From a virus: a stretch of DNA of 64,000 bases. The notes under the pieces are model-generated. The model was not told where the DNA came from, searched no databases, and was given only the letters and a program-made list of their open reading frames with translations. The DNA lies in the IMG/VR virus record IMGVR_UViG_3300014838_000015, positions 37,226 through 101,225 of that record; one strand, written 5' to 3'. A program made the position numbers and the translations under genes. Below, piece after piece: positions 22,707 through 47,572 of the stretch; the stretch's first letter is position 1; every line of letters begins with the position of its first letter.

Positions 22707-22754
22707 GCCAACAATGTAACACTGGACGACACGCGCGTTAAGAATATGTTTAAC

Positions 22755-23100: not shown

Positions 23101-23117
23101 CGGTTGTTAACGTAACC

Positions 23118-23145: not shown

Positions 23146-23151
23146 GTCTAG

Positions 23152-26121: not shown

Positions 26122-26125
26122 CGTC

Positions 26126-26551: not shown

Positions 26552-26552
26552 C

Positions 26553-27323: not shown

Positions 27324-27349
27324 TGCGTTTTCTGTTGTAGACTTCTACC

Positions 27350-28282: not shown

Positions 28283-28291
28283 GTTTCATAC

Positions 28292-28693
28292 GTGAAGAAG
28301 TTAGCGAACGATCAACAAGGCATGACCATTAGGTTCAGCGAGCTGCTCGAAAAGCGACTCAACGATGTTATTTCACGGAAGTATTGCTATGAAGCGTTAA
28401 CACCCGCAGCATTGAAAGGCATTCGTGATACGATTCGTGAAGTTGTGATCAGTATCTTCAACAAGAGTTCGTACAATCCATCGTATGAAATGATGGGATG
28501 GATCGCTAACCAATACTTCAGGCGCATTCAAATCAACGGCTCGCAGAGCATGGACGAACTTGTTATCATAAATGAGTTCAAGTTGTCAGAGATGTCAACG
28601 TTTGACATTTCACTACTTCGATCGTTGTTTTCTGGTACAACGATTGGATCTGATATCGAACTTGAAGTTGAAAGAAGGGGGATGTTATCATGA
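28292..28693 (+). CDS. Hypothetical protein, paralog of the next gene
   Basis: Shares FSxLL...IxIN...KL...LL...GT...LE..RR with 28690..29058. Confidence 0.7.
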   Translation: MKKLANDQQGMTIRFSELLEKRLNDVISRKYCYEALTPAALKGIRDTIREVVISIFNKSSYNPSYEMMGWIANQYFRRIQINGSQSMDELVIINEFKLSEMSTFDISLLRSLFSGTTIGSDIELEVERRGMLS

Positions 28694-29058
28694 GCGAAAA
28701 GCAAACATTTCACGATATATTTTCAAAGTTATTGCTTGAAAAGCTCAAACCAATCACTCAAAAAAATGTATCGCTAGATCTTGCATCATGCGTTGAGATT
28801 TACACAATGGTGTTTAATACGCTCGTTGATGTGTTTCAGGCATCAAACGTAAAGCTCACCAACGAATCTGTCAACTACGTTGCGCAGTGTTACTACGATG
28901 GAATTGTGATCAATGACGGTCACTATCTCGATCCAAACATCTTCACTCAACGAGCGAAGCTTGAGAATATCTCGTCTGATGAATTGGCTCTTCTTGCAGT
29001 CATGTTAAAGGGCACGGGATTCATTGCTTCGATCGTTCTTGAACTCAAGAGAAGGTGA
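28690..29058 (+). CDS. Hypothetical protein, paralog of the previous gene
   Basis: Same shared motifs as 28292..28693; ATGA-coupled. Confidence 0.7.
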   Translation: MSEKQTFHDIFSKLLLEKLKPITQKNVSLDLASCVEIYTMVFNTLVDVFQASNVKLTNESVNYVAQCYYDGIVINDGHYLDPNIFTQRAKLENISSDELALLAVMLKGTGFIASIVLELKRR

Positions 29059-30014
29059 CCTTGAAGGTTCACTTCGATAACGTTTGTTTCAACGCTCCAA
29101 CGGGACCGAACGTGTTCGGAGTCAGGTTGGCTAAGCGATTGTTTGAGATGGGACACGAGGTGGTGTTGAGTGCTCATGGTGCTGATGTTTCGTTGGTATT
29201 CATAGAACCAACGGGTGCACCGTTAGCACCCATCGTTGTTCAGAGGTTGGATGGCATTTGGACGAAACCAAGCGATTTCAACACAAAGAACTTTATGATC
29301 AAATCGCTGTACGATGACGCTGACGCTGTTGTATGGCAATCAGAGTTCGATAAAACAACAATACAACGCTTATGGGGCACGAAGAACGGTGTTGTCATTC
29401 ACAATGGCATCGAGATAGCTCTTGTTAAATCAATCACGATACCAGCGTTGGCTGAGATGCGTGCAACGTACAAACGAATCTACGTGTGTAGTGCGAGCTG
29501 GCACGGTCAGAAACGCCTTGAAGCAAACGTTGGGTTCTTTAGGCACCTGAAACAAAAGTGTCACTCGAGTTGTTTGATCGTCATCGGTGACCATCCTGAT
29601 TATCGAGCAACAGGAACCGACGTGTTTTATGCTGGACACGTTACACCTGAAGTATACACACAAATATATTTTGCAGCCGATTGGATGCTACACCTTGCGT
29701 ACATGGATCACTGTCCGAACGTTGTTGTGGAAGCTTTGGCACAGGGAACGCCGGTAGCATGCGTTGATTCAGGTGGCACAAAAGAATTGATTGGAGCGTA
29801 TGGAATCGTTCTCAATGAAACAAAACATTCCGATGAATTTGAATTTATCGATTACGACAATCCGCCGGAACTTGACGTAACGCGATTCAATGAATTACCG
29901 GTTCGAAGTGAACTTGATTATTCAACGATTGCGGACATAGACATCAAGAATACGGCAAAAAAGTACGTAGAAATGTTCGAATCGTTGTGTACACCTAGTG
30001 CTGCTGGTGTATAG
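29055..30014 (+). CDS. GT4 glycosyltransferase
   Basis: VQRLDG...WQSEF...IHNG...DHCPNVVVEALAQGTPV...GGTKEL. Confidence 0.88.
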   Translation: MTLKVHFDNVCFNAPTGPNVFGVRLAKRLFEMGHEVVLSAHGADVSLVFIEPTGAPLAPIVVQRLDGIWTKPSDFNTKNFMIKSLYDDADAVVWQSEFDKTTIQRLWGTKNGVVIHNGIEIALVKSITIPALAEMRATYKRIYVCSASWHGQKRLEANVGFFRHLKQKCHSSCLIVIGDHPDYRATGTDVFYAGHVTPEVYTQIYFAADWMLHLAYMDHCPNVVVEALAQGTPVACVDSGGTKELIGAYGIVLNETKHSDEFEFIDYDNPPELDVTRFNELPVRSELDYSTIADIDIKNTAKKYVEMFESLCTPSAAGV

Positions 30015-30022
30015 TACAAATC

Positions 30023-30223
30023 ATGACAAGAACAATTCAACAGGTCGATCCAAACACTCAACAGGTCATCGCGGAGTTTGCTTCGCCTCAGGCAGCAGCT
30101 ATTGCTGTGCAGAAGCCTGCTGGTCACGCAAACATCCTTCTCACGTGTGGCACAAACCTACTCTCTGGTAACAACACTCGGAAGTCGTACGGTTTCGTGT
30201 GGAAGTTCAACGATCAAGCGTAG
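30023..30223 (+). CDS. Stand-alone NUMOD1/IENR1-like DNA-binding protein (no nuclease domain)
   Basis: RTIQQVDPNTQQVIAEFASPQAAA...C...RKSYGFVWKF aligns with the C-terminal HTH of the window's endonucleases; TATAGT 7 nt upstream. Confidence 0.75.
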   Translation: MTRTIQQVDPNTQQVIAEFASPQAAAIAVQKPAGHANILLTCGTNLLSGNNTRKSYGFVWKFNDQA

Positions 30224-30233
30224 AGAGCAGAAC

Positions 30234-31145
30234 ATGAACAAAGTCTGGGTCAACCGTCCTTATGAGGGTTGGATATGTGATGTGTTGGCCCAGCGTTTTA
30301 TGCATGATAACGCTGACATTTGTGTTAATGATCCACATGAAGCAGATGTGATTTGGTTGTTGGCTGATTGGACATGGCGACAGGTGCCACGATCGGTTCT
30401 CACATCAAAAAAGGTGTTGACGACGATTCATCACATTGTGCCACAAAAGTTTGGTGATGTTGAACGTCGTGATTTTGATGATCGTGATGTTATCACTAAT
30501 GCTTATCACGTATTTAATGATCATACGTATGAATTCATCAGACCATTGACTGACAAGCCAATTCACATCATCCAATATTGGGCCGATACAACTTTATGGA
30601 AACCAACTAATACGAAAGCTAAGCTTCGAGAGAAGCATGGGTTACCAATCGATGCGTACATCTGTGGAAGTTTTCAACGAGACACAGAGGGTGCAGGAAT
30701 TCCGAATGGAATATTTCTACCCAAGCTTGAAAAGGGACCTGATATTTTTGCATCGTATGTGATGCAATTGCGTCAAAAATGTCCAAATTTATATGTGTTG
30801 TTGGCTGGTTGGCGGAGGCAATACCTCATTGAGAGGTTAGAAAATGCATCAGTGCCATTCTCATACATTGAGTTACCATCTCAAGTAACGCTCAACGAAC
30901 TCTACCAAACGTTGGATTTGTATCCAATTGCTTCACGCTTTGAAGGTGGACCTCAAGCATTGATAGAGTGTGGTTTGTTGAACGTACCAGTCGTTTCGCA
31001 TCACGTTGGAATCGCGGAGCAGGTGTTACCGCCATCAGCGATCAATGATGATTTGATCAAGGCCATTCCTACTTGCCCAGATGTTTCAAATATGTTGCTA
31101 CCAAATGGATACGAAGATTACAGGAATGCATTCAAATGGATGTAA
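30234..31145 (+). CDS. GT4 glycosyltransferase
   Basis: GSFQRDTEG...EKGPD...SRFEGGPQALIECG; start moved to ATG 30234. Confidence 0.85.
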   Translation: MNKVWVNRPYEGWICDVLAQRFMHDNADICVNDPHEADVIWLLADWTWRQVPRSVLTSKKVLTTIHHIVPQKFGDVERRDFDDRDVITNAYHVFNDHTYEFIRPLTDKPIHIIQYWADTTLWKPTNTKAKLREKHGLPIDAYICGSFQRDTEGAGIPNGIFLPKLEKGPDIFASYVMQLRQKCPNLYVLLAGWRRQYLIERLENASVPFSYIELPSQVTLNELYQTLDLYPIASRFEGGPQALIECGLLNVPVVSHHVGIAEQVLPPSAINDDLIKAIPTCPDVSNMLLPNGYEDYRNAFKWM

Positions 31146-31966
31146 ATAACGTTGCATTTTTGCTTGTTACGTGTTCAATGGAACCAATGAGAGCAAACGT
31201 TCTCAGGAACGTTGTTGAGAATATTATTACAGTTGCACCTGTATTATACAATGTGCTCACGGTGTTTGATAATGCATCGACGGAACCTGATACGCTTGAA
31301 GTTCTCAATGGATTGAATCGTAACTTTGCACCTGTGTTTCGAGCCTCAGAGAACGTTGGTTACTGGTCTGCAATAGATTGGTGGCTTGATAGCATGAATG
31401 AATCGCCACCAAAATATACGTACATCATTGAATCAGACGTAATTCATTATGATTTCAACAAATTAAGGAATTGTGTTGACTACCTTGACACACATAACGA
31501 CGTTGGATCAGTGAGACTTCTGGAATTTTCTGTTAAGAATAAGCAATTTTATAACAAAGATGCACGCGTTGAAGGTAGCAGAGTTTCTGCGTGGCAATCA
31601 TCAACAAATAAAGCAACTGGCGAACGAATCGTGATTAATCACGATGAAGGTGATCTGTATAAAACAACGTTTTTAACACAGTTATGTGCATTGAATCGGT
31701 ATGAAACGATGCTTGAAACATTCAAACGTTTACGTGGCTTTCAGAAATTTTCTGAACTTGATTTTCAGAAGTTGTACTGGGAAAAGTACAAATCAACGGG
31801 TTTGCTTGATGGCGGAATATTTCACGCTGAACTTACGGCGGCAAAAAATAACTTACCTACTGGTTCGTGGACTCCGATCGATGAATTGAAGAGAATGGGT
31901 TACCTTCCATCGCGCTTTGCATCGATAACGCCACAAAACGAGTACACAGTACAGAGGATGATTTAG
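31136..31966 (+). CDS. GT-A fold glycosyltransferase (GT2-like)
   Basis: VFDNAS...SENVGY...IIESDV. Confidence 0.7.
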   Translation: MDVNNVAFLLVTCSMEPMRANVLRNVVENIITVAPVLYNVLTVFDNASTEPDTLEVLNGLNRNFAPVFRASENVGYWSAIDWWLDSMNESPPKYTYIIESDVIHYDFNKLRNCVDYLDTHNDVGSVRLLEFSVKNKQFYNKDARVEGSRVSAWQSSTNKATGERIVINHDEGDLYKTTFLTQLCALNRYETMLETFKRLRGFQKFSELDFQKLYWEKYKSTGLLDGGIFHAELTAAKNNLPTGSWTPIDELKRMGYLPSRFASITPQNEYTVQRMI

Positions 31967-31975
31967 TGTTGTAAC

Positions 31976-33028
31976 ATGTCACGAATCATTGTCTTGGGTG
32001 GAACTGGTTCATTGGGTCGTAAGCTTATCGAACGTTTTTTGCCGAACAACGACGTTGCAGTGTATTCTCGTGATGAAGCAAAGCATTGGTCAATATCAAA
32101 CGATATGAAGGTTGGAAACCTTGCACATCGAATGTCATCGTTACAATTCTACGTTGGTGATGTACGTGATAAACAAAGAATTCGAGACGTTATTCGACAA
32201 TTCAAACCAGAGATTGTGATAATTGCCGCTGCGCTAAAGCAGGTAGACACATGTGAGTTGAGCCCATACGAAAGCGTTCAAACGAACCTTCTTGGTACAC
32301 AAAACATCATTGACGTGGTTAACGAACACGTCGAAAACAACTATGATAGACGATCGTTGATAGAAAAAGTTCTATTCGTTAGCACGGATAAAGCGTGTCA
32401 ACCTGTCAACGTATATGGCATGTGCAAGGCAATTTCCGAACGCCTGGTGACCAGCCAAGCGATGACAGGACACACGACCGTGAAGTACCTTGCCACTCGA
32501 TACGGGAACGTTCTGGAGTCACGTGGGAGCATCATTCCATTGTTCAAGTACCAGTGTATGCACGGTACGCAGCTTACGGTTACAGATCTTGATATGACGC
32601 GATTCTTGATGACGCTTGACGACAGCGTTGATCTCATAGAGAGAACGTTACACGAGGGTAAATCAGGAGAAACTTGGATTCCTCGTTTACCTGCTATGCG
32701 CATTGGTTGTTTAGCGAATATTTTTTCAAAATTGTATAATATACCCATCAAAATCATCGGCGCGCGACCTGGCGAAAAACGTGATGAGGATCTAATTTCG
32801 TTGTCAGAATCAACGAGAACGCGTTTAACGGAAGATCAACACAATTACGTTATAGCACCTGCATTCATGATGGGAAAAAACGATTCATTTGTGTATTCTA
32901 GTAATCAAAGCGTTATGAATGAGGATGAACTATTCAAGCACCTGAACGAATTAGGAATCATAGAAGCGCCTCTTGAAACGTTCAAAGGAATTGTAATCGA
33001 AGAAATAGCAACCAATCGTAAAGAATAA
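31976..33028 (+). CDS. UDP-GlcNAc 4,6-dehydratase (PseB/FnlA/CapD-type SDR)
   Basis: GGTGSLG, SRDEAK, AAALKQV, STDKA...YGMCK, RYGNVLESRGS, RPGEK. Confidence 0.92.
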   Translation: MSRIIVLGGTGSLGRKLIERFLPNNDVAVYSRDEAKHWSISNDMKVGNLAHRMSSLQFYVGDVRDKQRIRDVIRQFKPEIVIIAAALKQVDTCELSPYESVQTNLLGTQNIIDVVNEHVENNYDRRSLIEKVLFVSTDKACQPVNVYGMCKAISERLVTSQAMTGHTTVKYLATRYGNVLESRGSIIPLFKYQCMHGTQLTVTDLDMTRFLMTLDDSVDLIERTLHEGKSGETWIPRLPAMRIGCLANIFSKLYNIPIKIIGARPGEKRDEDLISLSESTRTRLTEDQHNYVIAPAFMMGKNDSFVYSSNQSVMNEDELFKHLNELGIIEAPLETFKGIVIEEIATNRKE

Positions 33029-33029
33029 C

Positions 33030-34169
33030 ATGAAAACATTTCCGCTGTTTAAGGTTCACGTTCCAATAAAAGAAGCGCTTTGTAACATTGAGAACGTTTT
33101 TGATTCAGGATATATCAATGAAGGTGTTGAAGTTTCGCGTTTAACCGTTGAATTGCAAAGACACCTTCTTGCTAAACAGTTGATTCTAACGAATAGTTGC
33201 ACATCAGCGCTAACGTTGGCGATGAAACTCGTAGGAGTTGGACCAAACACAGACGTTGTCACAACGCCAATGACGTGCATTGCAACGAACGTTCCTATCG
33301 TGTCTAGCGGCGCAAGAATTGTGTGGGCAGACGTCGATCGTGAACACGGAATGATCGATCCCGATAGCGTACGTAGGTGTATCACAGATCGAACAAAGGC
33401 AATCATCGCCGTTGCTTGGGCAGGTACTGCCCCAGATCTCAACGCTTTACTAAACATTTGTTACGATCATAAAATCAAATTGATCCTTGATGCAGCTCAT
33501 GCATTTGGTGCAGAATATGAAAACATGCCCATTCACATGTCAGCGCATTACACAACGTATTCTTTTCAGGCGATTAAACACTTCACAACCGGTGATGGTG
33601 GTGCATTGGTTTGCAACAATAAGGATGATTATGAACGATCAAAATCATTGAAGTGGTTTGGTCTTGACAGGGAACAAGCGAAGGATTCTCGTGGTGATTG
33701 GAAGGGTCAACAGTGGGACGTTGATATTGAAGAAGCTGGTTTCAAGTTCAACATGAACAACGTTTCCGCCGCGATTGGATTATCACAGTTACCATACATT
33801 GGTGAAATACTAAAGAAACACAGAGAGAACGCAACAATTTACAACGAAGAACTGCAACATTGTAAGAACGTTGTTCCAAACTGGATACAAACCTTGGGAG
33901 GATCAAGTCACTGGGTTTATGCAGTTCACGTTGAGAACGAATTGAACAGGAATGTACTGCTTAAAGCGCTCAATGATGAAGGAATCATGGCTGGGTTGGT
34001 TCACGTGCCCAACGATGAATACACTTGTTTCAAGAACTTTGCAAAGGATTTGCCTGGCGTCAGAGAGTTCAGCCAAAAGCAATTTGCGTTACCATGTGGT
34101 TGGTGGCTGAACAGTGATGATATTCGTTATATTGCGCACCGCGTAAGCGAATTAGCGAGGACGTTATGA
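33030..34169 (+). CDS. DegT/DnrJ/EryC1/StrS PLP-dependent sugar aminotransferase
   Basis: NSCTSAL, DAAHAFG, SFQAIKHFTTGDGG with the catalytic Lys. Confidence 0.93.
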   Translation: MKTFPLFKVHVPIKEALCNIENVFDSGYINEGVEVSRLTVELQRHLLAKQLILTNSCTSALTLAMKLVGVGPNTDVVTTPMTCIATNVPIVSSGARIVWADVDREHGMIDPDSVRRCITDRTKAIIAVAWAGTAPDLNALLNICYDHKIKLILDAAHAFGAEYENMPIHMSAHYTTYSFQAIKHFTTGDGGALVCNNKDDYERSKSLKWFGLDREQAKDSRGDWKGQQWDVDIEEAGFKFNMNNVSAAIGLSQLPYIGEILKKHRENATIYNEELQHCKNVVPNWIQTLGGSSHWVYAVHVENELNRNVLLKALNDEGIMAGLVHVPNDEYTCFKNFAKDLPGVREFSQKQFALPCGWWLNSDDIRYIAHRVSELARTL

Positions 34170-34906
34170 AGATTTGGATCGGCACCATGGAAAGCGGCGA
34201 GAACGACTTTGTTGCTTGCTGTGCTGCAATCAGAAATTCTTGCCTTAAAGCGCTTAATAATTCTACGATCGAAGGATATGAACACAGCATCGTATCAGGG
34301 TTGCCTGAACACGAAGCACATGCAAAGTTGTATGAACTTTGGAACGAAGCAAAAACATCGTTTGATCTTTTCTTGAAGGTTGATGCAGACACCGTTCTAA
34401 TGCATAACAACGTTGTTACAGACGTTGTTATGCTGTTTAAATCAAATGCGCGGCTGACTGGAATTCAGGCGTGGTTGTACGATCACATGACTGATGGAAA
34501 CATCTACGGATTGAGCTGCATGCGTAACACGGTGTCGTTGTCACGGATCAATGATAAATTACATCCAGATCGTGTTGATTTGCCGTCAACGCATGACGTC
34601 GTGTTAAGAGGCGACGCGTTGCCACGATCGTTGATTCCAGCTGGCAAGCATTGTTGTGATGCTAACGCTGAACAAGCGTTTAGGTTTGGCATTCATCGTG
34701 CATTAAAGGGACAATTTCACATCATCGATCGTGTTCGAATTGCTTGGAAATCATCAAATGATGTACAACGTGGGTTTGCATTGTTGGGAGCTAAACAAGC
34801 TCGTGAATTGAGCAACGGTCTCAAGATCAATTACGGTGATGAGGAGTTCAAACAATTGTTCGAATCAACGAAATTGAAGTACGATGAATTGATTGGAACG
34901 TTGTGA
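34166..34906 (+). CDS. Putative GT-A glycosyltransferase
   Basis: DLFLKVDADTVL (DxD after a beta strand); cluster context. Confidence 0.6.
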   Translation: MKIWIGTMESGENDFVACCAAIRNSCLKALNNSTIEGYEHSIVSGLPEHEAHAKLYELWNEAKTSFDLFLKVDADTVLMHNNVVTDVVMLFKSNARLTGIQAWLYDHMTDGNIYGLSCMRNTVSLSRINDKLHPDRVDLPSTHDVVLRGDALPRSLIPAGKHCCDANAEQAFRFGIHRALKGQFHIIDRVRIAWKSSNDVQRGFALLGAKQARELSNGLKINYGDEEFKQLFESTKLKYDELIGTL

Positions 34907-34907
34907 C

Positions 34908-35696
34908 ATGACAATAATTCTTGGAAAGAATTCGACCATTCACTCAAACGTTAGCGTTGATTCAAACGTAAACGTTATCATGGGTGATTGTTCATCAATT
35001 GGACAAGATGTTGTCATTTCAGGTGAAGGAACGTTGAGAATTGGTGATTATGTTAAGGTTCATAGGTTATGTTGGTTGAATGTTTTTAGCGACATTGATG
35101 TTGGTCACAATTCTTGGATTGGTGAAAAATCCATCATTGATGGAACGGCACGTTTGAAAATTGAAAACAACGTTCTTATAGGTGCTGCAAGTCAGGTTTG
35201 GACACACGTTGCTGGTGGGGATGCATTTTCAGGGTGTCGCATACGTTGTAGCAAATCAATCACGATAGAAAACAACGCATGGCTCTGCGCCGGTGTGTTG
35301 CTACAAGCGAGCAACGTTTCATCTCGAGTCGTTGTGTTTGCAGGCTCGAACGTCACAAGTGACATCTGTGCTGCCAATACGATTTGGTCAGGTAATCCAG
35401 CAATCGACATTACGAACGTTTCTGGGGGGAAACCGTGGGTCGACGTTACGGTTGAACAGAAGTTACAAAAATTTGATCTTCTTTTGAAGATGTACGAGAG
35501 AGAAGTTTGTAAAAACTATCACCGTAAATTCGTTGCTGTTAGTGATTTATGTGACAAAATTGATCAACAGGATGATGTGACGTATTTTAGTATGCATGAT
35601 TGCACGTATGTCAAAACGCAATCAGATGATGAACAATCGTTCATGAAGTGGTTGCTTAGACAAAATAAAGCAAAGTTCACACCGGTGATTCTATGA
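34908..35696 (+). CDS. Left-handed beta-helix (hexapeptide repeat) acyltransferase
   Basis: ILGKNSTI/IMGDCSSIG/IGDYVKV/VGHNSWIG/IENNVLIG repeats; WTH; WSGNPA. Confidence 0.88.
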   Translation: MTIILGKNSTIHSNVSVDSNVNVIMGDCSSIGQDVVISGEGTLRIGDYVKVHRLCWLNVFSDIDVGHNSWIGEKSIIDGTARLKIENNVLIGAASQVWTHVAGGDAFSGCRIRCSKSITIENNAWLCAGVLLQASNVSSRVVVFAGSNVTSDICAANTIWSGNPAIDITNVSGGKPWVDVTVEQKLQKFDLLLKMYEREVCKNYHRKFVAVSDLCDKIDQQDDVTYFSMHDCTYVKTQSDDEQSFMKWLLRQNKAKFTPVIL

Positions 35697-35950
35697 TGAA
35701 TGAACAAAAATTAGGTGCTGTGTTTGAACGCGTGTTCGTAAGTGATGGATTGTATAACGTGCGAGAATTTACATACGGTGACATGCCTGACGGAACAAAG
35801 GATTGGGATAGTTTGCAACACATGATTCTGTGTTCTCTGATAGAAGATGAATTTTATGTGATGTTCAGAATCGATCAAATCGCAAAGATTAGATCATACG
35901 ATGATGCAAAAGCGGTGTTGTCTGGGTTGGGAGTTGATTTCAATGTTTGA
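35693..35950 (+). CDS. Acyl carrier protein
   Basis: WDSLQHM...IEDEF phosphopantetheine attachment site; 85 aa, acidic. Confidence 0.85.
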   Translation: MMNEQKLGAVFERVFVSDGLYNVREFTYGDMPDGTKDWDSLQHMILCSLIEDEFYVMFRIDQIAKIRSYDDAKAVLSGLGVDFNV

Positions 35951-36347
35951 AACTTATCGAATAAATCACGTTGGAATGGCGGTTCCAAACATTGAACGTT
36001 ATCTAAAGACATGTGAGTCGTTGTATCGTGGATTCAATCGTTCTAAGTTGATCATCAATGATGCTCAAGGCGTTCTTGAATTGTTCATGAATGATGGCTA
36101 CACGACGTTGGAACTATTGGAACCATTGAATGATTCATCGCCAATAAAACAATTCCTTCATCATCATATCATGGGTGGGTTAGTTCACGTTTGTTATGAA
36201 TGTAACGATGTTTCAAAAGCGATAGAGCAACTCACTGTTTCAGGCGCTAAGTTGGTCAATGGACCGACACCTGATGTTGCATTCGATGGAAAACCAGTTG
36301 CGTTCATGTTCTTTGGGGGTCAATTGATAGAATTGGTGAATTGGTAA
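35943..36347 (+). CDS. VOC-family protein (methylmalonyl-CoA epimerase-like)
   Basis: INHVGMAV...QGV...LELLEP...HVCYE...AFDG..VAF...LIELV. Confidence 0.85.
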   Translation: MFETYRINHVGMAVPNIERYLKTCESLYRGFNRSKLIINDAQGVLELFMNDGYTTLELLEPLNDSSPIKQFLHHHIMGGLVHVCYECNDVSKAIEQLTVSGAKLVNGPTPDVAFDGKPVAFMFFGGQLIELVNW

Positions 36348-37363
36348 TGAAGGAATTCCGTAAGCTCATTGTTCTCGACCTCGACAATACGTTGTGGAAC
36401 GGTGTCGCCGGTGATGATGGATTAAACGTAAAACCGTTCATTGAATTTCAAACAGAATTGAAATTGCTCAAGGATCATGGTATATTGCTTGCTATTGCTA
36501 GTAAAAACGATGAAATCATTGCGTTAGACGTTATGAAGAATGCGAAAGGAATGGTTCTCAGCGAAAACGATTTCGTAGATTGGCGAATCAATTGGGATGA
36601 TAAGGCAAAGAACGTTTATGACATCACGAATGCATTGAACATTGGTTTGCAATCCGTTGTGTTCATTGATGATAATGAATTTGAGCGTGCAAGGGTCAAA
36701 GATGCGTTGCCTGAAGTTTTAGTTCCAGATTGGCCAAGCGTTCATGAGTACTATGTTGCAGCGCTACATGAGTTAGATTGCTTTGATACATCACCCACGA
36801 CAGAAGAAGATACGTTACGTACGCAGATGTATATAAAGGAACGCGAGCGTGCTAAACTTAGGTCAAACAGCGAATCGATTGATGATTGGTTGAACACGAT
36901 CGGAACGAAGATAGAGTTTGAAACATTGAACGATGATAATTTACTCCGCGTCGTTCAATTGTTGAATAAATCGAATCAAATGAACTTGACAACGAGGCGA
37001 ACGACAAGTGAAGAGTTCGTTTTATGGAACACAGCACCTGAAAACGTAACGCACGTCGTAAAGGTTTCAGACAGATTCGGTGATGCGGGATTGACGGGTA
37101 TCATTGGAATGCACATTGAACTTGATTGCATTAAGATCGTTGATTTCGTTCTTAGCTGTCGTGTGATGTGCAGGTTGGTTGAGGAAGCAATGGTTTCTCA
37201 CGTAATTGAGTTCGCAAGGAGCGTTGGTGGTATGACGAAAGTCGTTGCGGAGTACGTGCCGACCAACAGAAACAAGCCGTGTTTAGAATTCTGGCAACAA
37301 CGTTCTAGATTTAAACAATTTGATAACGTTTTTGTGTATGATTTACATGAGGTTAAACGGTGA
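36347..37363 (+). CDS. fkbH: FkbH-like HAD-IIIC glyceryl-ACP-forming phosphatase/transferase
   Basis: DLDNTLW, SKND, INWDDK, FIDDN.FER, QLLNKSNQ.NLTTRR, DRFGD.G, LSCRV. Confidence 0.92.
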   Translation: MKEFRKLIVLDLDNTLWNGVAGDDGLNVKPFIEFQTELKLLKDHGILLAIASKNDEIIALDVMKNAKGMVLSENDFVDWRINWDDKAKNVYDITNALNIGLQSVVFIDDNEFERARVKDALPEVLVPDWPSVHEYYVAALHELDCFDTSPTTEEDTLRTQMYIKERERAKLRSNSESIDDWLNTIGTKIEFETLNDDNLLRVVQLLNKSNQMNLTTRRTTSEEFVLWNTAPENVTHVVKVSDRFGDAGLTGIIGMHIELDCIKIVDFVLSCRVMCRLVEEAMVSHVIEFARSVGGMTKVVAEYVPTNRNKPCLEFWQQRSRFKQFDNVFVYDLHEVKR

Positions 37364-38271
37364 TAATTGATCTAGTTGACAGCTTTTCTTATGCAACAAC
37401 AAATTGTTTTGCTTATCAAATAACAACGTATATGAATGACGTTCCAAATTTGAAAACGATCGAATTATCGAACATTGAAAATGTTAAAAATGACAATATC
37501 GAAGGAATTGTTTGTAGATGTAAACAACGCTCAATAGTCAAATACATTGAAAAAATATCTGCGTTGGCTGATTCAACACCGGTCATAATTTACGATCAAG
37601 ATCCGTGGGAAGCGTTCATAGATGAATCACCATACAATGGTGCATATAATGATATTTTTAATGCTTTGAACGTAAAAACGTTCGCCGTTCCATCAAAATG
37701 GTGGAGTGATTATATTTTGCAGCGTGGTTTACCATCAACGTTCGTCAGAATGTGGATATTACCGGCGAATTGCAGCGAACGTCCAAATTTCATCGATAGA
37801 AAAACTAACGTTGGATTTATTGGTTCGGTGCATAAGCATAGAGCAAAACTATTCGATCAATTGCTTAAACTAGGCATTGATGTTTACGTTGTTGGAACGA
37901 ATTCGTACTCGTATCCAGAATATGTGAAATTATTATCAAACGTAAAGATTTACATAAGAACAGAAGATTCACAAAAAAATGTCAATGGTAACGTTGTGAA
38001 CTTACAACATGGATTGTGGGGCAGGGACATTGAAGTCGCTTCACGAGGATGCTTTTCAATAAGGGATCGTGGATTGTACAGTGAAACGTACATCGATGGA
38101 ATTGAAACGATTTTTCTCTACGATGATGTCAAAGACATACCCATGATGATCAAACAAATCAATGATATGGACGTCGTTGAACGACAAATGATGATCGATC
38201 GTTCTGTTGAACGTATTAGATCGCTAGATTACTGGCGTGAAACTGTAAAGATTCTCACTGATTTCACCTGA
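37360..38271 (+). CDS. GT-B glycosyltransferase (CgeB/Glyco_trans_1_2-like)
   Basis: VGFIGS..HR...RDIEVASRGCF. Confidence 0.65.
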   Translation: MIIDLVDSFSYATTNCFAYQITTYMNDVPNLKTIELSNIENVKNDNIEGIVCRCKQRSIVKYIEKISALADSTPVIIYDQDPWEAFIDESPYNGAYNDIFNALNVKTFAVPSKWWSDYILQRGLPSTFVRMWILPANCSERPNFIDRKTNVGFIGSVHKHRAKLFDQLLKLGIDVYVVGTNSYSYPEYVKLLSNVKIYIRTEDSQKNVNGNVVNLQHGLWGRDIEVASRGCFSIRDRGLYSETYIDGIETIFLYDDVKDIPMMIKQINDMDVVERQMMIDRSVERIRSLDYWRETVKILTDFT

Positions 38272-38298
38272 TGGTTTCATTAGTTGTACATTGAAGCC

Positions 38299-39093
38299 AT
38301 GAAAGTTGTTGTCTTAGGTAGCACGGGAATGCTTGGTCATGAGCTAGTTTCACATCTCATTGGCAACACGAAGTTTGAGGTGTGGCCATACACAAGATCG
38401 TGCTTGGACGCTCGAGACGGTGATATTCGAATGATCAAAGAAGACACAGATTTTGTGATAAATTGCGCCGGTATTATACGACAAATAGAAGACACTGACG
38501 TTCATAATCTATTGAGAGTAAACGGCGTGTTTCCATGGAGGTTGCAGGATCGTTGTGAACAGGTTGGTGCTAAGTTGATACACGCTAGCACTGATTGCGT
38601 GTTCTCAGGAAAACGAGGAAGTTATACTGAACTTGATAAACCTGATGCAATTGATTTTTATGGGTTATCAAAGTCGCTTGGCGAACCACGAGACGCGATG
38701 GTCATACGAACGAGCATCATTGGAAGGGAAATCAAGACATCTAGATCGCTCCTGGAGTGGGCAATATCACACACCAATGAAACCATTGACGGATACATTG
38801 ATCACTTCTGGAACGGTATAACGTCACGAGCATACGCAAAAGCATGCGTAAAGATCATGATTGATGGATTATGGTCGCCGGGTATTCACCACGTGTTTTC
38901 AACTAGCGTGACCAAACACGATTTGCTTTGTAAGATAAGCAATGTGTATGGATTGAATCTCAAGGTGAAACCAGTTAAAAAGCACGATGTGCCCGTTGAT
39001 ATGACATTGGCGACGATGAAATCATTGTGCGCTTTTCTTGCGATTCCAGACATTGATACGATGCTACACGAACTGTCGAACGAAGAGGTGTAA
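38299..39093 (+). CDS. RmlD-like NDP-4-keto-6-deoxysugar reductase
   Basis: GSTGMLG, INCAG, STDCVFSG, YGLSK, RTSIIG. Confidence 0.9.
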   Translation: MKVVVLGSTGMLGHELVSHLIGNTKFEVWPYTRSCLDARDGDIRMIKEDTDFVINCAGIIRQIEDTDVHNLLRVNGVFPWRLQDRCEQVGAKLIHASTDCVFSGKRGSYTELDKPDAIDFYGLSKSLGEPRDAMVIRTSIIGREIKTSRSLLEWAISHTNETIDGYIDHFWNGITSRAYAKACVKIMIDGLWSPGIHHVFSTSVTKHDLLCKISNVYGLNLKVKPVKKHDVPVDMTLATMKSLCAFLAIPDIDTMLHELSNEEV

Positions 39094-39094
39094 C

Positions 39095-39733
39095 TTGGAA
39101 AGACAAGAATTATATTCATTGTTTTCGCGGTGTCAAACACGAACTGATCTCATCAAGGCGTTGGTTGAGACGTTTGATTACAAAAGCTACCTTGAGATCG
39201 GGTGCAGAAAGAACGAAACGTTCGATGCAGTGAAGTGTAAAGCGAAGGTTGGCGTTGATCCTGTTGAGGGTGGAACACATAAAATGTTGTCTGATGAGTT
39301 CTTTAAACAGAACAAATCAACGTTTGATATCGTATTCATCGATGGAGATCACCATCACGATCAGGTGCTAAGGGATGCTTTGAATTCATTGATGTGTCTG
39401 AATTCGAATGGAACGATCGTGATGCATGATTGTTCACCTCCTGATGAAACGTACGAAGGAAAGAGAAACTGGAAATGCGGTACAGCTTGGCGTGCATTTG
39501 CTACGTTGCGTGAACAGGTTGACCTTGATGCGATCGTCGCTGATTGGGATTATGGATCTGGTCTCATACGTCGAAGCGACAACAATTCGATCGTTTATCT
39601 TCAAGGAAAGACGATGGAAGATCTAACGTTCGATGACTTCGAACGACACAGGTACGATTGGATGAAGCTGTCGAATCAGGAACAAGTTGCAGATTGGGTA
39701 TGGGAACACAAAATGAGAAGTATCATCAAATGA
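39095..39733 (+). CDS. Class I SAM-dependent methyltransferase (Methyltransf_24-like)
   Basis: SYLEIG, GVDP, FDIVFIDGDH, HDC.P; TTG start after GAGG. Confidence 0.85.
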   Translation: MERQELYSLFSRCQTRTDLIKALVETFDYKSYLEIGCRKNETFDAVKCKAKVGVDPVEGGTHKMLSDEFFKQNKSTFDIVFIDGDHHHDQVLRDALNSLMCLNSNGTIVMHDCSPPDETYEGKRNWKCGTAWRAFATLREQVDLDAIVADWDYGSGLIRRSDNNSIVYLQGKTMEDLTFDDFERHRYDWMKLSNQEQVADWVWEHKMRSIIK

Positions 39734-40185
39734 GTGATATGAACGTTTTTTTGAAGATTGCTCCCACCCCATCATTTTGGAGCGCGCTCGCGGGAAATTT
39801 TGTTAATTTCAAGACAGGTGATAAAATCATTATTCGGGATCAGTTTAAAAGGCTACTGGCGTTCCCAGAAGATCAAGCTCAATGGAACGAAACGTTGGTT
39901 GAAACGATCATCACATGTGAAAAAGATCTATTGGCGAACGGATTTGAACATTCTATGATCTATGTGAACAATGACGTTAGCAGAATTTTAGAATCTAGCG
40001 TTTTATACGTTCGCGCTGGAAAATATGAATCGTATGATGGAACGTTGTGTAGACGAATGAACGTTTACCGCGATCGTTCAATCGGCGATGAAGTTCTATT
40101 GATCGCTGAAAACAACAAATGTAAAATTGCAACGAGAAGGATCATCGTTCTTGATATTGGTAAGAAAAACAAGGAGCACGTATGA
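39730..40185 (+). CDS. Hypothetical protein
   Basis: ATGA-coupled on both sides. Confidence 0.65.
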   Translation: MSDMNVFLKIAPTPSFWSALAGNFVNFKTGDKIIIRDQFKRLLAFPEDQAQWNETLVETIITCEKDLLANGFEHSMIYVNNDVSRILESSVLYVRAGKYESYDGTLCRRMNVYRDRSIGDEVLLIAENNKCKIATRRIIVLDIGKKNKEHV

Positions 40186-41150
40186 AGCAATCGATCGCCG
40201 TAATAGGTCAGGGATTCGTGGGTGGATCGTTGACAACCGTGTTCGCTGAACGAGGATTCGACGTTCACGTGTTTGATAAAGCAGGAAAGGTTGCACCGAA
40301 CGCGACGCCTTTTCGTTATTTTCCGGAGATCAATGAAGGATCGAACGGCAAGGTTCGTAACATCACGAACCTTGTGTATGCATGTGAATCCTTGGGTCGT
40401 GGGTTCAAGAACGTTTACTTCGTTTGTTTACCAACACCGATGTGTGAAGACGGTTCGTGTGATCTTACGATCGTTGAAGGTGCACTTCGTGAGCTCGCCT
40501 CGGCTCCAGGAATTAGCGGAAGAATCGCAGTTGTTAAGTCAACTGTCCCGCCTGGAAGCACTGAACGTTGGAATGAGGAATTCAAATCGCTCAATTTACG
40601 TGTCATCTTCAATCCTGAGTTCCTTCGCGAAGCCAGCGCGCTCGATGATATGCGGAACCAGAACCGCGTTGTTCTTGGCGGACCACGCCCGTACATCAAT
40701 AGAGTGAAGCAGATTTTTGAATCGGCATTTCCGAACGTGCCGATCATCAAGACATCGTCGACAACCGCTGAAATGGTGAAGTACGTGTCCAACGTTCACC
40801 TCGCCGTCAAGGTTTCATTGGCAAATGAGTTTTACCAAATCTGTGAAGCCCTCGATTCACGAGGGGCGAATATTGATTATGATAAGGTGATCGAATATGC
40901 GACACTCGATGAACGACTTGGAAAATCGCACTGGAAGGTGCCAGGTCCTATGCCTTCTGATGACACTGGAGAACCAGCATATGGTTATGGCGGAAGTTGT
41001 TTTGTGAAGGACATTAATTCTTTGATTTTCTTGGCGAGGGAATTAGGAATTGATCCAAAGGTGATGCTTGGTTCGTGGAATAAGAATATTGAAGTTCGTC
41101 CACAAAAAGATTGGCTTAGGCTCGTGGGTAGGGCCGTTAGTAAGAAATGA
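40182..41150 (+). CDS. ugd: UDP-glucose/GDP-mannose 6-dehydrogenase family, short form without the C-terminal domain
   Basis: GQGFVG, CLPTP, KSTVPPG, NPEFLRE, AEMVKY..N, GYGGSCFVKD. Confidence 0.9.
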   Translation: MKQSIAVIGQGFVGGSLTTVFAERGFDVHVFDKAGKVAPNATPFRYFPEINEGSNGKVRNITNLVYACESLGRGFKNVYFVCLPTPMCEDGSCDLTIVEGALRELASAPGISGRIAVVKSTVPPGSTERWNEEFKSLNLRVIFNPEFLREASALDDMRNQNRVVLGGPRPYINRVKQIFESAFPNVPIIKTSSTTAEMVKYVSNVHLAVKVSLANEFYQICEALDSRGANIDYDKVIEYATLDERLGKSHWKVPGPMPSDDTGEPAYGYGGSCFVKDINSLIFLARELGIDPKVMLGSWNKNIEVRPQKDWLRLVGRAVSKK

Positions 41151-41279: not shown

Positions 41280-42302
41280 ATGCACATGCACAAGTACGGC
41301 GTACTGATCGGACGATTTCAGCCATTTCATAATGCTCACCTGGAGACGGTACGGTTTGCGTTAGAGCACGTTGAGCGGCTCATCATCGTTCTTGGATCTC
41401 ATAATCGAGCTCGTGACATTCGTAACCCATGGTCTACTGATGAACGCGTAACGATGATTGATTCGTGTCTTTCTCACGATGATAACGAACGTATTGAATT
41501 CGTGAAAGCCAGTGACTATGACTATAATGATCTTTTGTGGGTAGCAACGGTCCAGGAAGCCATTCACGAGGTAACGAACGGGTCAACTGACGTCAAGTTG
41601 ATCGGTCATCGTAAGGATGCAACCAGCTTCTACCTGAATTTGTTTCCACAATGGGGTGATCACATTGAAACTGGCATCAGCATGAACGTCGACGCGTCGA
41701 AGGTTCGAGAGATGATGTTCGGTCTCGATACAATAGGAATAAAAGACATGGTACCATCTAACGTGTATGGTATGCTCATCACGTACATGTCTACTCCGGA
41801 GTTCAAACGCCTTCACGATGAATATCACGACATTCTTGCTGATAAGGTTGCATGGTCAGGTGCACCGTACCAACCGACATTCGTGACAACCGACGCCATC
41901 GTCATCTGCTCCGGTCACGTGTTGGTAGTCAGACGACGAGGTCGCTACGGAAAAGGATTGATTGCATTGCCAGGTGGTTATATCAAGCCGTCAGAATCGA
42001 TACAAAATGGTTGCATCCGCGAACTCAAGGAGGAGACGGGAATCAAGATCGATTCTCAAACGTTACGTACTCACTGCGTTGATTCGCACGTATTTGATAA
42101 TCCAACACGTGACCTTCGTGGACGAGTGATTACACACGCCTTTTGTTTCAGGTTACTAGATGGTGAATTACCGCGTGTCAAAGGAATGGATGACGCTGAT
42201 CGTGCGTGGTGGATGCCTCTTCGAACGGTGTGGGCAAGCGAGGAGAAATTCTTCTGTGATCACTTTCACATAATCAATTCTTTTTGTAACAGGATGTCTT
42301 AA
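41280..42302 (+). CDS. nadM: Bifunctional NMN adenylyltransferase / ADP-ribose pyrophosphatase (NadM-Nudix)
   Basis: GRFQPFHNAH, RNPW...R, GHRKD..SFYL..FPQW, Nudix box GG...E...IRELKEETG. Confidence 0.95.
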   Translation: MHMHKYGVLIGRFQPFHNAHLETVRFALEHVERLIIVLGSHNRARDIRNPWSTDERVTMIDSCLSHDDNERIEFVKASDYDYNDLLWVATVQEAIHEVTNGSTDVKLIGHRKDATSFYLNLFPQWGDHIETGISMNVDASKVREMMFGLDTIGIKDMVPSNVYGMLITYMSTPEFKRLHDEYHDILADKVAWSGAPYQPTFVTTDAIVICSGHVLVVRRRGRYGKGLIALPGGYIKPSESIQNGCIRELKEETGIKIDSQTLRTHCVDSHVFDNPTRDLRGRVITHAFCFRLLDGELPRVKGMDDADRAWWMPLRTVWASEEKFFCDHFHIINSFCNRMS

Positions 42303-42304
42303 AC

Positions 42305-42445
42305 ATGAAGTTCATAGCGAGCATCGCTAAACAACTCGAAGCGGCAGGTTTTGATTATGCAGTTGCAGTTGCAACACAGGCAGAGATCGATGCCGGTGCC
42401 GCATGTGGCCAACTTAGCCTAGTGATTGAGAATAACAAGAAGTAA
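42305..42445 (+). CDS. 46-aa hypothetical protein inside the NAD operon
   Basis: MKFIASIAKQLEAAGFDYAVAVATQAEIDAGAACGQLSLVIENNKK; starts 2 nt after the nadM stop; below the ORF track cutoff. Confidence 0.5.
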   Translation: MKFIASIAKQLEAAGFDYAVAVATQAEIDAGAACGQLSLVIENNKK

Positions 42446-42505
42446 CGTAACACCACGAACGACCGGAGAGGTTCAATGTGGTTCAATAGAACACGGAGAG
42501 TGAAC

Positions 42506-47493: not shown

Positions 47494-47568
47494 GCCCCTG
47501 TAGCTCAGCGGTCGAGCGGCCGTATTTCAACCCGGCGTCGCACGTGGGTTCGAATCCCTCCGGGGGCG
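47494..47568 (+). tRNA. Atypical tRNA or tRNA-like gene; anticodon ambiguous (TTC Glu or TCA)
   Basis: Acceptor GCCCCTG/CGGGGGC, D-arm GCTC..GAGC, T-loop TTCGAAT. The anticodon stem is only 4 bp (GCCG/CGGC) around the 10-nt TATTTCAACC. No encoded CCA. Confidence 0.75.
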
Positions 47569-47572
47569 CTCT

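Follow-up and report, generated by a model that had tools for sequence, protein, structure and literature searches.

An 18-kb glycan island of a peat jumbo phage carries a candidate ACP-dependent module for acylation of an amino sugar

The DNA analysed here (the window, 64,000 nucleotides of IMG/VR record IMGVR_UViG_3300014838_000015) originates from peat and belongs to an uncultured jumbo bacteriophage of the ~350-kb class; the record, 101 kb long, is ~29% complete. A previous sequence-only reading had described ten open reading frames at 31976–39733 as one gene cluster. All ten are there, on the plus strand, and the cluster is real, but it is only part of a larger unit, making up the right-hand half of a glycan island of 18 kb at 23152–41150 (Table 1). 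The junctions between the ten reading frames are overlaps of 4–14 nt or gaps of 1–12 nt, and two larger nominal overlaps result from upstream TTG start calls. The second Methyltransf_24 gene probably starts downstream of its TTG, and the probable start of the left-handed β-helix (LbH) acyltransferase is the ATG at 34908.

Table 1. Features of the glycan island (positions in the window)
Feature	Position	Strand	Support
GT2-domain protein, 634 aa, island left end	23152–25056	+	weak Pfam GT2 matches
Methyltransf_24 methyltransferase, first of two, island core	25053–25787	+	PF13578, 59.8 bits
Run of four glycosyltransferases	26529–31145	+	Pfam
GT2	26529–27323	+	Pfam
GT1-like	27350–28282	+	Pfam
GT4	29055–30014	+	Pfam
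GT1	30078–31145	+	Pfam
Conserved protein, function not assigned	31073–31966	+	38 of 54 related viral loci have a homologue
UDP-GlcNAc 4,6-dehydratase, PseB/FnlA/Mg534 type, probably inverting	31976–33028	+	Polysacc_synt_2, E 2e-74
DegT-family sugar 4-aminotransferase	33030–34169	+	PF01041, E 3e-78
GT-A fold glycosyltransferase, phage-rich family, 246 aa	34166–34906	+	AF2 and Foldseek
LbH acyltransferase, conserved C-terminal domain	34893–35696	+	hexapeptide matches
Acyl carrier protein (ACP), 85 aa, DSL serine motif	35693–35950	+	2LML match
VOC-fold protein, methylmalonyl-CoA epimerase type	35943–36347	+	Glyoxalase_4, 52.5 bits
Stand-alone FkbH, HAD phosphatase and glyceryl transferase	36341–37363	+	TIGR01686
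CgeB/YkvP-like GT-B glycosyltransferase, 303 aa, island core	37360–38271	+	weak PF13524 match
RmlD-like 4-reductase, accessory	38284–39093	+	RmlD_sub_bind, 83 bits
Methyltransf_24 methyltransferase, second, accessory	39038–39733	+	PF13578, 39 bits
175-aa protein and nucleotide-sugar dehydrogenase homologue, island right end	39658–41150	+	Pfam

The island was compared with 54 related viral loci, 40 of which have the DegT gene. At its left end, the GT2-domain protein is matched at the corresponding position by homologues of 50–65% identity in 11 related loci, and the first Methyltransf_24 protein is conserved in 17. Each of the four glycosyltransferases that follow, with two small reading frames interspersed among them, is kept in 26–40 of the 54 loci, in unchanged order. 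The next protein has no match in Pfam, NCBIfam, or PHROG and is always directly upstream of the dehydratase. At the right end, the dehydrogenase homologue (40182–41150) is among the best-conserved genes of the island (42 of the 54 loci, mostly at 54–72% identity); of the UDPG_MGDP_dh domains it has only the N-terminal and the central one, the C-terminal UDP-binding domain being absent, and it scores slightly under the cut-off of TIGR03026 (187 bits). The island encodes no phosphoglycosyl transferase, flippase, polymerase, or any other polytopic membrane protein. The best explanation is that it serves glycosylation in the cytoplasm and is a core trait of this jumbo phage lineage.

Homologues of the cluster genes are mostly bacterial, as would be found for a host fragment fused to phage DNA by mis-assembly. 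This alternative, which had been named beforehand, is refuted by the hexamer signature, the even depth, and the syntenic viral contigs, and its remaining probability is negligible. AACGTT, 8.8-fold above expectation in the record overall, has a density of 3.6 per kb in the cluster and 2.6 per kb in the record, and the G+C content of the cluster equals that of the remainder. In four independent runs, the depth is even (3–7×) from the helicase gene through FkbH, and contigs at least 99% identical span the helicase, the island, and the LbH-ACP-VOC-FkbH genes. The terminase, PhoH, helicase, and baseplate genes are on the cluster's own contig, and the same island, with the same gene order, is found in ~40 further related IMG/VR phage contigs, one of them a complete 369-kb genome. 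The cluster DNA is native to the jumbo phage.

The family assignments made previously for the ten proteins are borne out by profile searches. FkbH is above the NCBIfam cut-off (256 bits against 147 for TIGR01686), and its motifs DLDNT and LSCR are invariant (D13, D15, T17, and C273 in 13 homologues). The dehydratase, the aminotransferase, and the VOC protein are each under their equivalog cut-offs, with 255 bits for the PseB model (cut-off 408), 223 bits for the PseC model, and 79 bits for the methylmalonyl-CoA epimerase model TIGR03081 (cut-off 115), respectively. The nearest solved structure to the dehydratase is Megavirus Mg534 (4TQG, E 2e-71), and the product, previously proposed only as an NDP-4-amino-4,6-dideoxy sugar, is most likely a UDP-GlcNAc-derived 2-acetamido-4-amino-2,4,6-trideoxy-L-hexose. 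The best solved relatives of the DegT protein are the putative aminotransferases 4ZWV/4XAU, CalS13, and Helicobacter pylori PseC, and those of the RmlD-like protein are dTDP-4-dehydrorhamnose reductases. The VOC protein aligns over its full length with human methylmalonyl-CoA epimerase (3RMU, E 1.6e-14), with the His/Glu/His/Glu positions kept. The assignments of the ACP, the GT-A protein, and the CgeB-like protein also hold, on weaker evidence than the other seven. The ACP has no Pfam match; it aligns with the solved putative ACP 2LML (E 4e-4, WDSL aligned) and is 43% identical over 42 aa to a bacterial FkbH-adjacent ACP that itself matches PF00550. The AF2 model of the GT-A protein (pLDDT 93.6) has exclusively GT-A enzymes as top Foldseek matches, its D73-A74-D75 is invariant, and it has homologues in 54 viral loci. 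For the CgeB-like protein, with homologues in 39 of the 54 related loci, the lead came from the ESM Atlas (TM 0.78–0.80 with CgeB-like clusters).

A PseH-like GNAT is present in 37 of the 40 DegT-bearing relatives, usually between DegT and the GT-A gene, and is absent from the 101 kb of the present phage, where DegT abuts the GT-A gene and a 2.5-kb module of four genes, LbH-ACP-VOC-FkbH, is found between the GT-A and the CgeB-like genes. A survey of synteny in phage genomes had been suggested with the previous reading; while the island is common, not one of the 54 related loci has the module. The four-gene module replaces the usual acetyl-adding GNAT in this phage. An LbH protein is present in three of four loci lacking the GNAT and in two of 37 having it (Fisher p = 0.004, kinship ignored), which corresponds to at most two independent replacements, given that the similarity between loci L205 and L216 is 76%. 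The closest homologues of the LbH protein (51–56% identity) and of FkbH (55–58%) appear, judging by equal sizes, to be on the same three contigs (10,246, 111,646, and 9,947 bp). More distant members of the LbH family (31–35% identity) are found in viral loci that have neither FkbH nor ACP; two such loci carry the GNAT too. The FkbH-linked LbH proteins form a subclade of their own, whose identity to the other members does not exceed 41% and in which residues of the loop beside His105, a position invariant in the family alignment, are changed.

Among prokaryotes, such an ACP adjoins FkbH in 53 of 80 genome loci. The VOC gene is present at only 21 of the 80 FkbH loci, often with DegT too, and is therefore an optional tailoring step. 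Most bacterial FkbH homologues have an FkbH_N domain, which the phage protein lacks. The nearest known systems are cj1299–cj1304 of Campylobacter jejuni (DMGA-pseudaminic acid) and WfpD/WfpG of Flavobacterium psychrophilum. C. jejuni strains lacking the VOC gene cj1301, or with a broken FkbH gene cj1302, have no dimethylglyceroyl-pseudaminic acid (PMC7099621). In F. psychrophilum, the PglD-type LbH protein WfpG is predicted to move an acyl group from the dedicated ACP WfpD to UDP-Qui2NAc4N (PMC6519341). Our literature search found neither a biochemical study of an FkbH-ACP-VOC glycan cassette nor a published phage example; to our knowledge, a phage pathway for ACP-borne, glycerate-derived acylation of an amino sugar has not been described.

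These data suggest, with a probability of about 0.55, that the 4-N-acetyl group of UDP-2-acetamido-4-amino-2,4,6-trideoxy-L-hexose is replaced in this phage by a glycerate-derived acyl group carried on a dedicated ACP. The inverting dehydratase and the DegT aminotransferase would make the amino sugar from UDP-GlcNAc. In most relatives the GNAT would then acetylate its 4-amino group; here, the four-gene module would act instead. FkbH would load glycerate from 1,3-bisphosphoglycerate onto the ACP, whose activation would require a host PPTase: as previously noted for the window, a PF01648 search finds none there, and extending it to all 101 kb of the record and to three nearly complete relatives also gives none. 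The VOC protein would work on the glyceryl thioester and, from its sequence, is proposed to be a C2 epimerase, most plausibly inverting this carbon via a metal-bound enediolate. The LbH protein, the proposed N-acyltransferase, would take the acyl group off the ACP and attach it to the 4-amino nitrogen, and a Methyltransf_24 enzyme might O-methylate the glyceroyl group. With its seven to eight soluble glycosyltransferases, the island would then assemble a short glycan on an acceptor inside the cell, most likely proteins of the virion.

The position of the module, standing where relatives have the GNAT, strengthens the ACP-dependent reading. It is nevertheless conceivable, if unlikely, that the LbH protein is an ordinary acetyl-CoA acetyltransferase, which either does the N-acetylation otherwise done by the GNAT or adds O-acetyl groups to the glycan. 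An unrecognised transferase would then use glyceryl-ACP differently, perhaps to esterify a glycan hydroxyl or to acylate another amine once it is deacetylated, as proposed for N5 of C. jejuni pseudaminic acid. By sequence, the protein is closest to acetyl-CoA users of the WcaF/maltose O-acetyltransferase type, with HpsU also among the nearest named families, and its predicted model has only generic LbH structure matches; L176–L179, L193, L205, and L216 have a member of the family but neither FkbH nor ACP, and the C. jejuni glyceroyl group is carried by N5 rather than by the PseC-made amine (PMC3068675). Against this, the LbH protein is the sole acyltransferase of the island (GNAT, FabH-like, and MBOAT proteins are absent), the LbH and ACP genes share 4 nt at the stop of the former and the start of the latter, and the FkbH-linked proteins form the distinct subclade described above. 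It is less probable still that the module makes some C3 acyl group different from glyceroyl, which the sugar would then bear. The VOC protein would in this case not epimerise the glyceryl thioester but isomerise it or convert it in another way, in the manner of glyoxalase I, to a keto-aldehyde or a lactyl- or pyruvyl-type product. Glyoxalase I entries match this sub-cut-off protein nearly as well, and few FkbH loci have it; however, true methylmalonyl-CoA epimerases are its best matches over the full length, their metal and catalytic positions are kept in it, and the C. jejuni cassette with a VOC gene gives a glyceroyl derivative.

The target of the glycan can also be read differently. CgeB-type transferases act on cell-surface protein layers and the bacterial analogue decorates flagellin, so that the same chemistry might serve to modify host flagellin, pili, S-layer, or envelope glycan, for example against superinfection. 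This is doubtful, as the island lacks the membrane proteins listed above and is, as a block, part of the conserved core of a jumbo phage lineage that looks lytic, and virion glycosylation has precedents in mycobacteriophages, by phage-encoded soluble glycosyltransferases (Freeman et al. 2023, as cited in PMC12801897), and in giant viruses (PMC10117803). A role of the module in hypermodification of DNA bases, which the AACGTT excess might suggest, is very improbable: the module is between two glycosyltransferase genes within an island of sugar-nucleotide and glycosyltransferase genes, and no thymidylate-synthase-like hydroxymethylase is found in the 101 kb, a weak argument given the completeness of the record.

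The earlier interpretation, in which the phage itself encodes an ACP-dependent pathway that yields an N-acylated 4-amino sugar, is retained in its core, except for two members of the cluster. The RmlD-like reductase is present in only seven of the 54 relatives and the second Methyltransf_24 protein in eight, mostly together with the reductase, and they form a separate accessory pair that probably belongs to another branch.

Genes on the + strand of the window form one tight run of 18 kb, hereafter the glycan island, in which most neighbors overlap by 4–14 nt or stand no more than 26 nt apart. Its upstream genes code for a GT2-domain protein, an additional Methyltransf_24 protein, and GT2, GT1-like, GT4, and GT1 glycosyltransferases (GTs). 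Downstream comes a nucleotide-sugar dehydrogenase homolog without UDP-binding domain, followed by NMNAT-Nudix and NAMPT genes. Between them lies a cluster of ten genes, for which the sequence-only reading had proposed families; these calls agree with Pfam and NCBIfam profiles and, for the acyl carrier protein (ACP), the GT-A protein, and the CgeB-like protein, with matches to solved or modeled structures. FkbH, the ACP, the GT-A, the CgeB-like GT, and the ORFs of unknown function are not represented among the PHROGs families.

Coordinates of the island, its surroundings, and loci compared with it. Positions are those of the window, except for the L-numbered loci, which come from scans for homologs. 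Families are Pfam/NCBIfam calls, except for the ACP, GT-A, and CgeB-like proteins.
Feature	Coordinates	Description
Glycan island	23152-41150	+ strand
Structural variant or repeat	24354-25206	Within GT2-domain and methyltransferase genes
Ten-gene cluster	31976-39733	
Dehydratase	31976-33028	Polysacc_synt_2 4,6-dehydratase
Aminotransferase	33030-34169	DegT
GT-A	34166-34906	246 aa
LbH	34893-35696	Hexapeptide acyltransferase (left-handed beta-helix)
ACP	35693-35950	85 aa
VOC	35943-36347	VOC
FkbH	36341-37363	FkbH
CgeB-like GT	37360-38271	303 aa
Reductase	38284-39093	RmlD-like
Second methyltransferase	39038-39733	Methyltransf_24
Dehydrogenase homolog	40182-41150	Lacks the C-terminal UDP-binding domain
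NMNAT-Nudix and NAMPT	41280-43960	NAD salvage
177-aa protein	44494-45027	Weak Peptidase_C39 match (23.4 bits, E 6e-5)
tRNA	47494-47569	ARAGORN, no identity assigned; odd anticodon loop (printed 'ttca'), might read UGA
Slot between GT-A and CgeB-like GT, L176	10803-15717	GNAT, ATP-grasp, HAD, formyltransferase-like protein
Same slot, L188	10705-12086	Sugar N-formyltransferase-like gene
Same slot, L194	10723-12389	SDR, second GNAT
Additional dehydrogenase, L201	11576-12901	Full-length form, 441 aa
Distant LbH family member, L179	8367-12876	
Distant LbH family member, L177	10680-11893	
Viral FkbH, L004	6363-9374	
Viral FkbH, L008	4610-9229	
Viral FkbH, L007, L009, L015		

FkbH is the only protein of the cluster that scores above a curated equivalog-type cut-off (TIGR01686, 256.4 bits for a cut-off of 146.65, covering profile positions 3–318 of 323). 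Residues D13, D15, and T17 (DLDNT, the HAD DxDxT motif) and C273 (in LSCR) are invariant among 13 homologs. In OzmB, a member of the same family, the donor is 1,3-bisphosphoglycerate and the reaction passes through a Cys intermediate; by analogy, we take C273 to be the Cys carrying the glyceryl group. A gene for a candidate partner ACP is located 0.4 kb upstream of it. Its product has no Pfam or NCBIfam match at E ≤ 0.01, PF00550 included. Its WDSLQHM, with the DSL serine motif where helix 2 begins, aligns with the WDSLSHM of 2LML, a solved protein that is a putative ACP (E = 4e-4), and it is 43% identical over 42 aa to the ACP adjacent to FkbH in a bacterial locus (L174), which itself matches PF00550 at E = 1e-6.

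The remaining assignments are made at various depths. The VOC protein belongs to the superfamily (PF13669, 52.5 bits vs 27) and scores below the equivalog cut-off of methylmalonyl-CoA epimerase (TIGR03081, 78.9 bits for 114.95); it aligns over its full length with the human enzyme (MMCE, 3RMU), and the alignment suggests that the His (NHV), Glu (ELL), His (HVC), and Glu (EL) positions are kept. The dehydratase (254.9 bits, cut-off 407.75) and the aminotransferase (223.5 bits, cut-off 423.5) likewise fall below the PseB and PseC equivalogs, and by these scores they are assigned to the PseB and PseC groups at family level only. The nearest solved relatives of the aminotransferase are the putative aminotransferases 4ZWV and 4XAU, CalS13, and PseC, the last two acting at C4. 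The 246-aa protein has a GT-A fold with an invariant D-A-D (AF2 pLDDT of 93.6, Foldseek), and the 303-aa protein resembles the GT-B enzymes CgeB and YkvP.

The record is 101 kb long and 29% complete according to CheckV, the window being its right-hand 64 kb. It carries a large terminase, and PhoH, helicase, and baseplate wedge protein genes lie within the window. The sequence-only reading had named a misassembled host fragment as the case that would undo it, and this explanation fails on both coverage and composition. Contigs at least 99% identical to the window extend from the helicase gene as far as FkbH (positions 17500-37400), with an even cover of 3–7× in four runs, and the palindrome AACGTT, which occurs 262 times in the record for 30 copies expected from base composition (8.8-fold over), is common to cluster and record (3.6 vs 2.6 per kb, with 11 copies in the 2.5-kb block from LbH to FkbH). 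Hence, misassembly can be rejected. A fourth-order Markov model expects 257 copies and absorbs the excess, the bias thus being already present in 5-mers; CGATCG, ATCGAT, and TGATCA are also 3–4-fold over-represented in the whole record. The stretch is present in peat, permafrost, and freshwater metagenome runs of many studies, and no RNA dataset figures among the runs carrying it. In two peat runs, contigs have loose ends in the 24354-25206 stretch, and a 25-nt replacement joins 25206 to 24354; either a repeat or a structural variant is indicated.

When IMG/VR is scanned with the GT-A family, 54 viral loci are recovered, many on contigs of 200–370 kb. About 40 of them have the same island genes in the same order, with dehydratases and aminotransferases 50%–66% identical to those of the record. 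A 1431-aa protein encoded outside the island is shared as well; its counterpart in a complete, terminally repeated 369-kb genome is 52% identical. These are relatives at the level of the genome, which is consistent with the approximately 350 kb implied by CheckV. Among the 40 relatives with DegT, 37 also have a GNAT of about 175 aa, mostly right between DegT and the GT-A. This protein matches Acetyltransf_3 in Pfam and PseH best in NCBIfam (59–80 bits across its whole length, short of the cut-off of 93), so a trio of PseB-like, PseC-like, and PseH-like proteins is the norm for the lineage.

The record departs from this norm. No GNAT homolog is found in the whole 101 kb, the stop of DegT overlaps the start of the GT-A, and LbH, ACP, VOC, and FkbH sit between the GT-A and the CgeB-like GT. 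FkbH, ACP, and VOC are undetectable in all 54 related loci, and FkbH is absent from five related records, three of which are 91%–100% complete, in a search that recovers the FkbH of the record itself. The only other relatives that lack the GNAT and have an acyltransferase are L205 and L216, both with the same LbH family. Absence of the GNAT is associated with presence of LbH (Fisher p = 0.004), in an association that amounts to two events at most, as L205 and L216 are 76% alike. In other relatives, the slot between the GT-A and the CgeB-like GT holds differing small modules (see table), a hot spot for decoration genes.

One possible reading, with a probability of about 0.4, is that a jumbo phage replaced the acetyltransferase of a particle-glycosylation island with a FkbH–ACP–epimerase–acyltransferase module; its virions, or some other target within the cell, would then bear an N-(methyl)glyceroyl diamino sugar and not the diacetamido sugar of its relatives. 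The most likely chemistry is inferred as follows. The dehydratase and the aminotransferase would yield UDP-2-acetamido-4-amino-2,4,6-trideoxy-L-hexose; FkbH would load glycerate onto the ACP; VOC could invert C2 of the glyceryl thioester via a metal-bound enediolate, which is chemically plausible; and LbH would pass the acyl group to the 4-amine of the sugar. LbH is the sole acyltransferase of the island and takes the place of the missing GNAT. A Methyltransf_24 enzyme might add methyl groups to the hydroxyls of the glyceroyl moiety. Only 7 of the 54 relatives have the RmlD-like reductase and only 8 the methyltransferase next to it; the two more likely make up a separate branch, leading to a 4-reduced 6-deoxy-L-HexNAc as with the Megavirus chilensis proteins Mg534/Mg535. 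The absence of a PPTase from the window, claimed in the sequence-only reading, extends to the whole record and to the complete relatives, which implies that a host enzyme would activate the ACP.

Hexapeptide matches predict the beta-helix of LbH, and the AF2 model is a coil of short strands (pLDDT of 75.5) in which Foldseek recognizes generic beta-helix acyltransferases only, discriminating neither donor nor acceptor. By sequence, LbH is nearest to acetyl-CoA-dependent O-acetyltransferases, and distant members of its family occur without FkbH, twice alongside a GNAT. The family is rare, with a conserved C-terminal domain and a candidate catalytic residue, His105, that is invariant in 10 members. 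Records place its closest members (51%–56% identity) on contigs of 9,947, 111,646, and 10,246 bp, and the closest homologs of FkbH (55%–58%) on contigs of exactly these sizes; judged from the equal sizes, the two appear to lie on the same three contigs. LbHs linked to FkbH form a subclade of their own, at most 41% identical to those without, and 18 positions distinguish the two groups, several of which are found in the loop beside the invariant His; the subgroup-specific S113 (for Glu), R58, and R118 may serve as a lead. Searches by sequence and by fold do not tell acyl-ACP from acyl-CoA as its donor; what bears on the choice is context, namely the gene overlap with the ACP, the apparent co-location with FkbH on three other contigs, and the separate subclade.

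Other roles for the island can be set against its gene content. A lipid-carrier polysaccharide locus of the O-antigen or capsule type would require an initiating transferase, a flippase or ABC exporter, and a polymerase; Pfam finds no phosphoglycosyl transferase, flippase, ABC exporter, or polymerase family in the island, where a hydrophobic segment occurs in only one small ORF, and this type of locus is rejected. For the same reasons the system looks cytoplasmic, to judge from its genes. A nonulosonic acid pathway (PseI, PseF) is rejected for the 101 kb of this approximately 29% complete record, where there is neither a NeuB-type synthase (PF03102) nor a CMP-transferase (PF02348). The FkbH/OzmB systems of polyketide synthesis (methoxymalonyl-ACP, tetronates) share with the phage the TIGR01686 family, its motifs, and a dedicated ACP. 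Unlike in them, there is no ketosynthase, FkbI/K-type dehydrogenase, or PKS here, and the phage acyl group would be placed on the amine of a sugar instead of entering a polyketide chain; as neither a ketosynthase nor a FabH-like gene is present, a polyketide or tetronate role is rejected. Glycosylation by soluble GTs, together with conservation of the island in a lytic-type lineage, favors virion proteins as the acceptor.

FkbH has more than 5,000 homologs, and FkbH–ACP(–VOC) cassettes are common in the glycan loci of bacteria and archaea. In 80 sampled prokaryotic loci, an ACP like that of the phage is adjacent to FkbH in 53 and a VOC in 21, often with a DegT nearby; one bacterial locus reads FabH-like, VOC, FkbH, ACP, MBL-fold protein, DegT. 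Among the matches listed in metagenome and genome scans, relatives show at most 51% identity. In viruses FkbH is rare: it is found in 2 of 50,697 GenBank phages, both unannotated records, and in IMG/VR it turns up at 14 loci, among which are several giant-virus bins; no ACP or VOC is detectable at any of them. The viral FkbHs include fusion proteins of 1003 and 1539 aa, and several of the five contigs in the table are labeled giant-virus bins (GVMAG). A DNA-level search of GenBank phages gave no relevant match. Literature searches yielded no publication on FkbH in phages, nothing of use on the PDB entries 8VR6 and 2LML, and no enzymology of FkbH–ACP(–VOC) glycan cassettes, a broad search for FkbH plus glycans returning the C. 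jejuni FlaGrab paper only.

Phage-encoded soluble GTs have a precedent in mycobacteriophages, where, as Freeman et al. are said to have described in 2023 (Cell Host Microbe), they modify capsid and tail proteins. These phages reportedly use host sugar nucleotides and encode no sugar-nucleotide tailoring or acyl modules, and in this they differ from the island. The closest bacterial counterpart is Campylobacter jejuni NCTC 11168, whose cj1293–cj1304 region comprises pseB, pseC, cj1295, the ACP cj1299, a methyltransferase, cj1301, cj1302, fabH2, and an ACP. By gene family, the phage resembles it in having FkbH, VOC, a small ACP, and a methyltransferase beside a PseB/PseC-type pair, and the proposed phage product would likewise be an N-glyceroyl amino sugar. 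The C. jejuni locus differs by its FabH-like enzyme and Cj1295, and it continues to a nonulosonic acid with the acyl group on N5. In the phage, a beta-helix acyltransferase is encoded instead, the 101 kb contain neither NeuB nor a CMP-transferase, and a FabH-like gene is absent. In strain 11168, cj1302 (FkbH-domain) and cj1301 ("epimerase") belong to the flagellin glycosylation locus, and dimethylglyceroyl-pseudaminic acid is missing from strains in which cj1301 is absent or cj1302 is broken (PMC7099621), the modification being 2,3-di-O-methylglyceroyl on N5 of pseudaminic acid (PMC3068675).

Another parallel is the wfpC–wfpG module of Flavobacterium psychrophilum, which also combines a dedicated ACP with a beta-helix enzyme for the N-acylation of a 4-amino trideoxyhexose, acyl transfer being predicted in both systems. 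There, the PglD-type LbH WfpG is predicted to move the acyl group from WfpD, the ACP, onto the 4-amine of UDP-Qui2NAc4N, and the presence of the N-acyl sugar in the O-polysaccharide has been established chemically (PMC6519341). In contrast with the phage proposal, its acyl group is 3,5-dihydroxyhexanoyl, made by ketosynthases and a ketoreductase and not FkbH-loaded glycerate, its sugar is D-configured, and its glycan is built on a lipid carrier (PMC6519341). The Mg534/Mg535 pair of M. chilensis and the amino-sugar fibril glycosylation of giant viruses are virus-encoded as well, but they belong to viruses of eukaryotic hosts, have no carrier-protein-dependent acylation, and their N-acyl group is acetyl (PMC10117803, PMC9614988).

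The proposed chemistry parallels bacterial N-acyl amino-sugar modules and involves no new principle, the novelty being the setting and the exchange of GNAT for LbH. If the proposal is correct, this is a virus-encoded, carrier-protein-dependent acylation of sugars and a natural diversification of glycans on phage particles. It would also give the first enzymatic handle on the FkbH–ACP–VOC cassette of bacterial glycan loci, including the C. jejuni route to dimethylglyceroyl-pseudaminic acid, a flagellin modification and the only product of such a cassette known chemically. The phage module is a small soluble test system (six or seven small proteins and no membrane steps), a built-in control comes from those relatives whose island includes a GNAT, and both the donor of LbH and the role of VOC are directly testable. 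The jumbo-phage island varies mainly in its N-acyl decoration (acetyl, possibly formyl, and glycerate-derived), as would be expected of a surface exposed to selection.

Two distant LbH family members on other viral contigs have different surroundings: one lies beside NeuB, a class-III aminotransferase, and a CMP-transferase, i.e., a phage nonulosonic acid pathway, and another beside a DegT fragment and a sulfotransferase. The dehydrogenase homolog ranks with the most conserved of the island genes, being present in 42 of the 54 relatives, mostly at 54%–72% identity, and one relative has the full-length form in addition. The NMNAT-Nudix and NAMPT genes directly after the island occupy the same place in many relatives.
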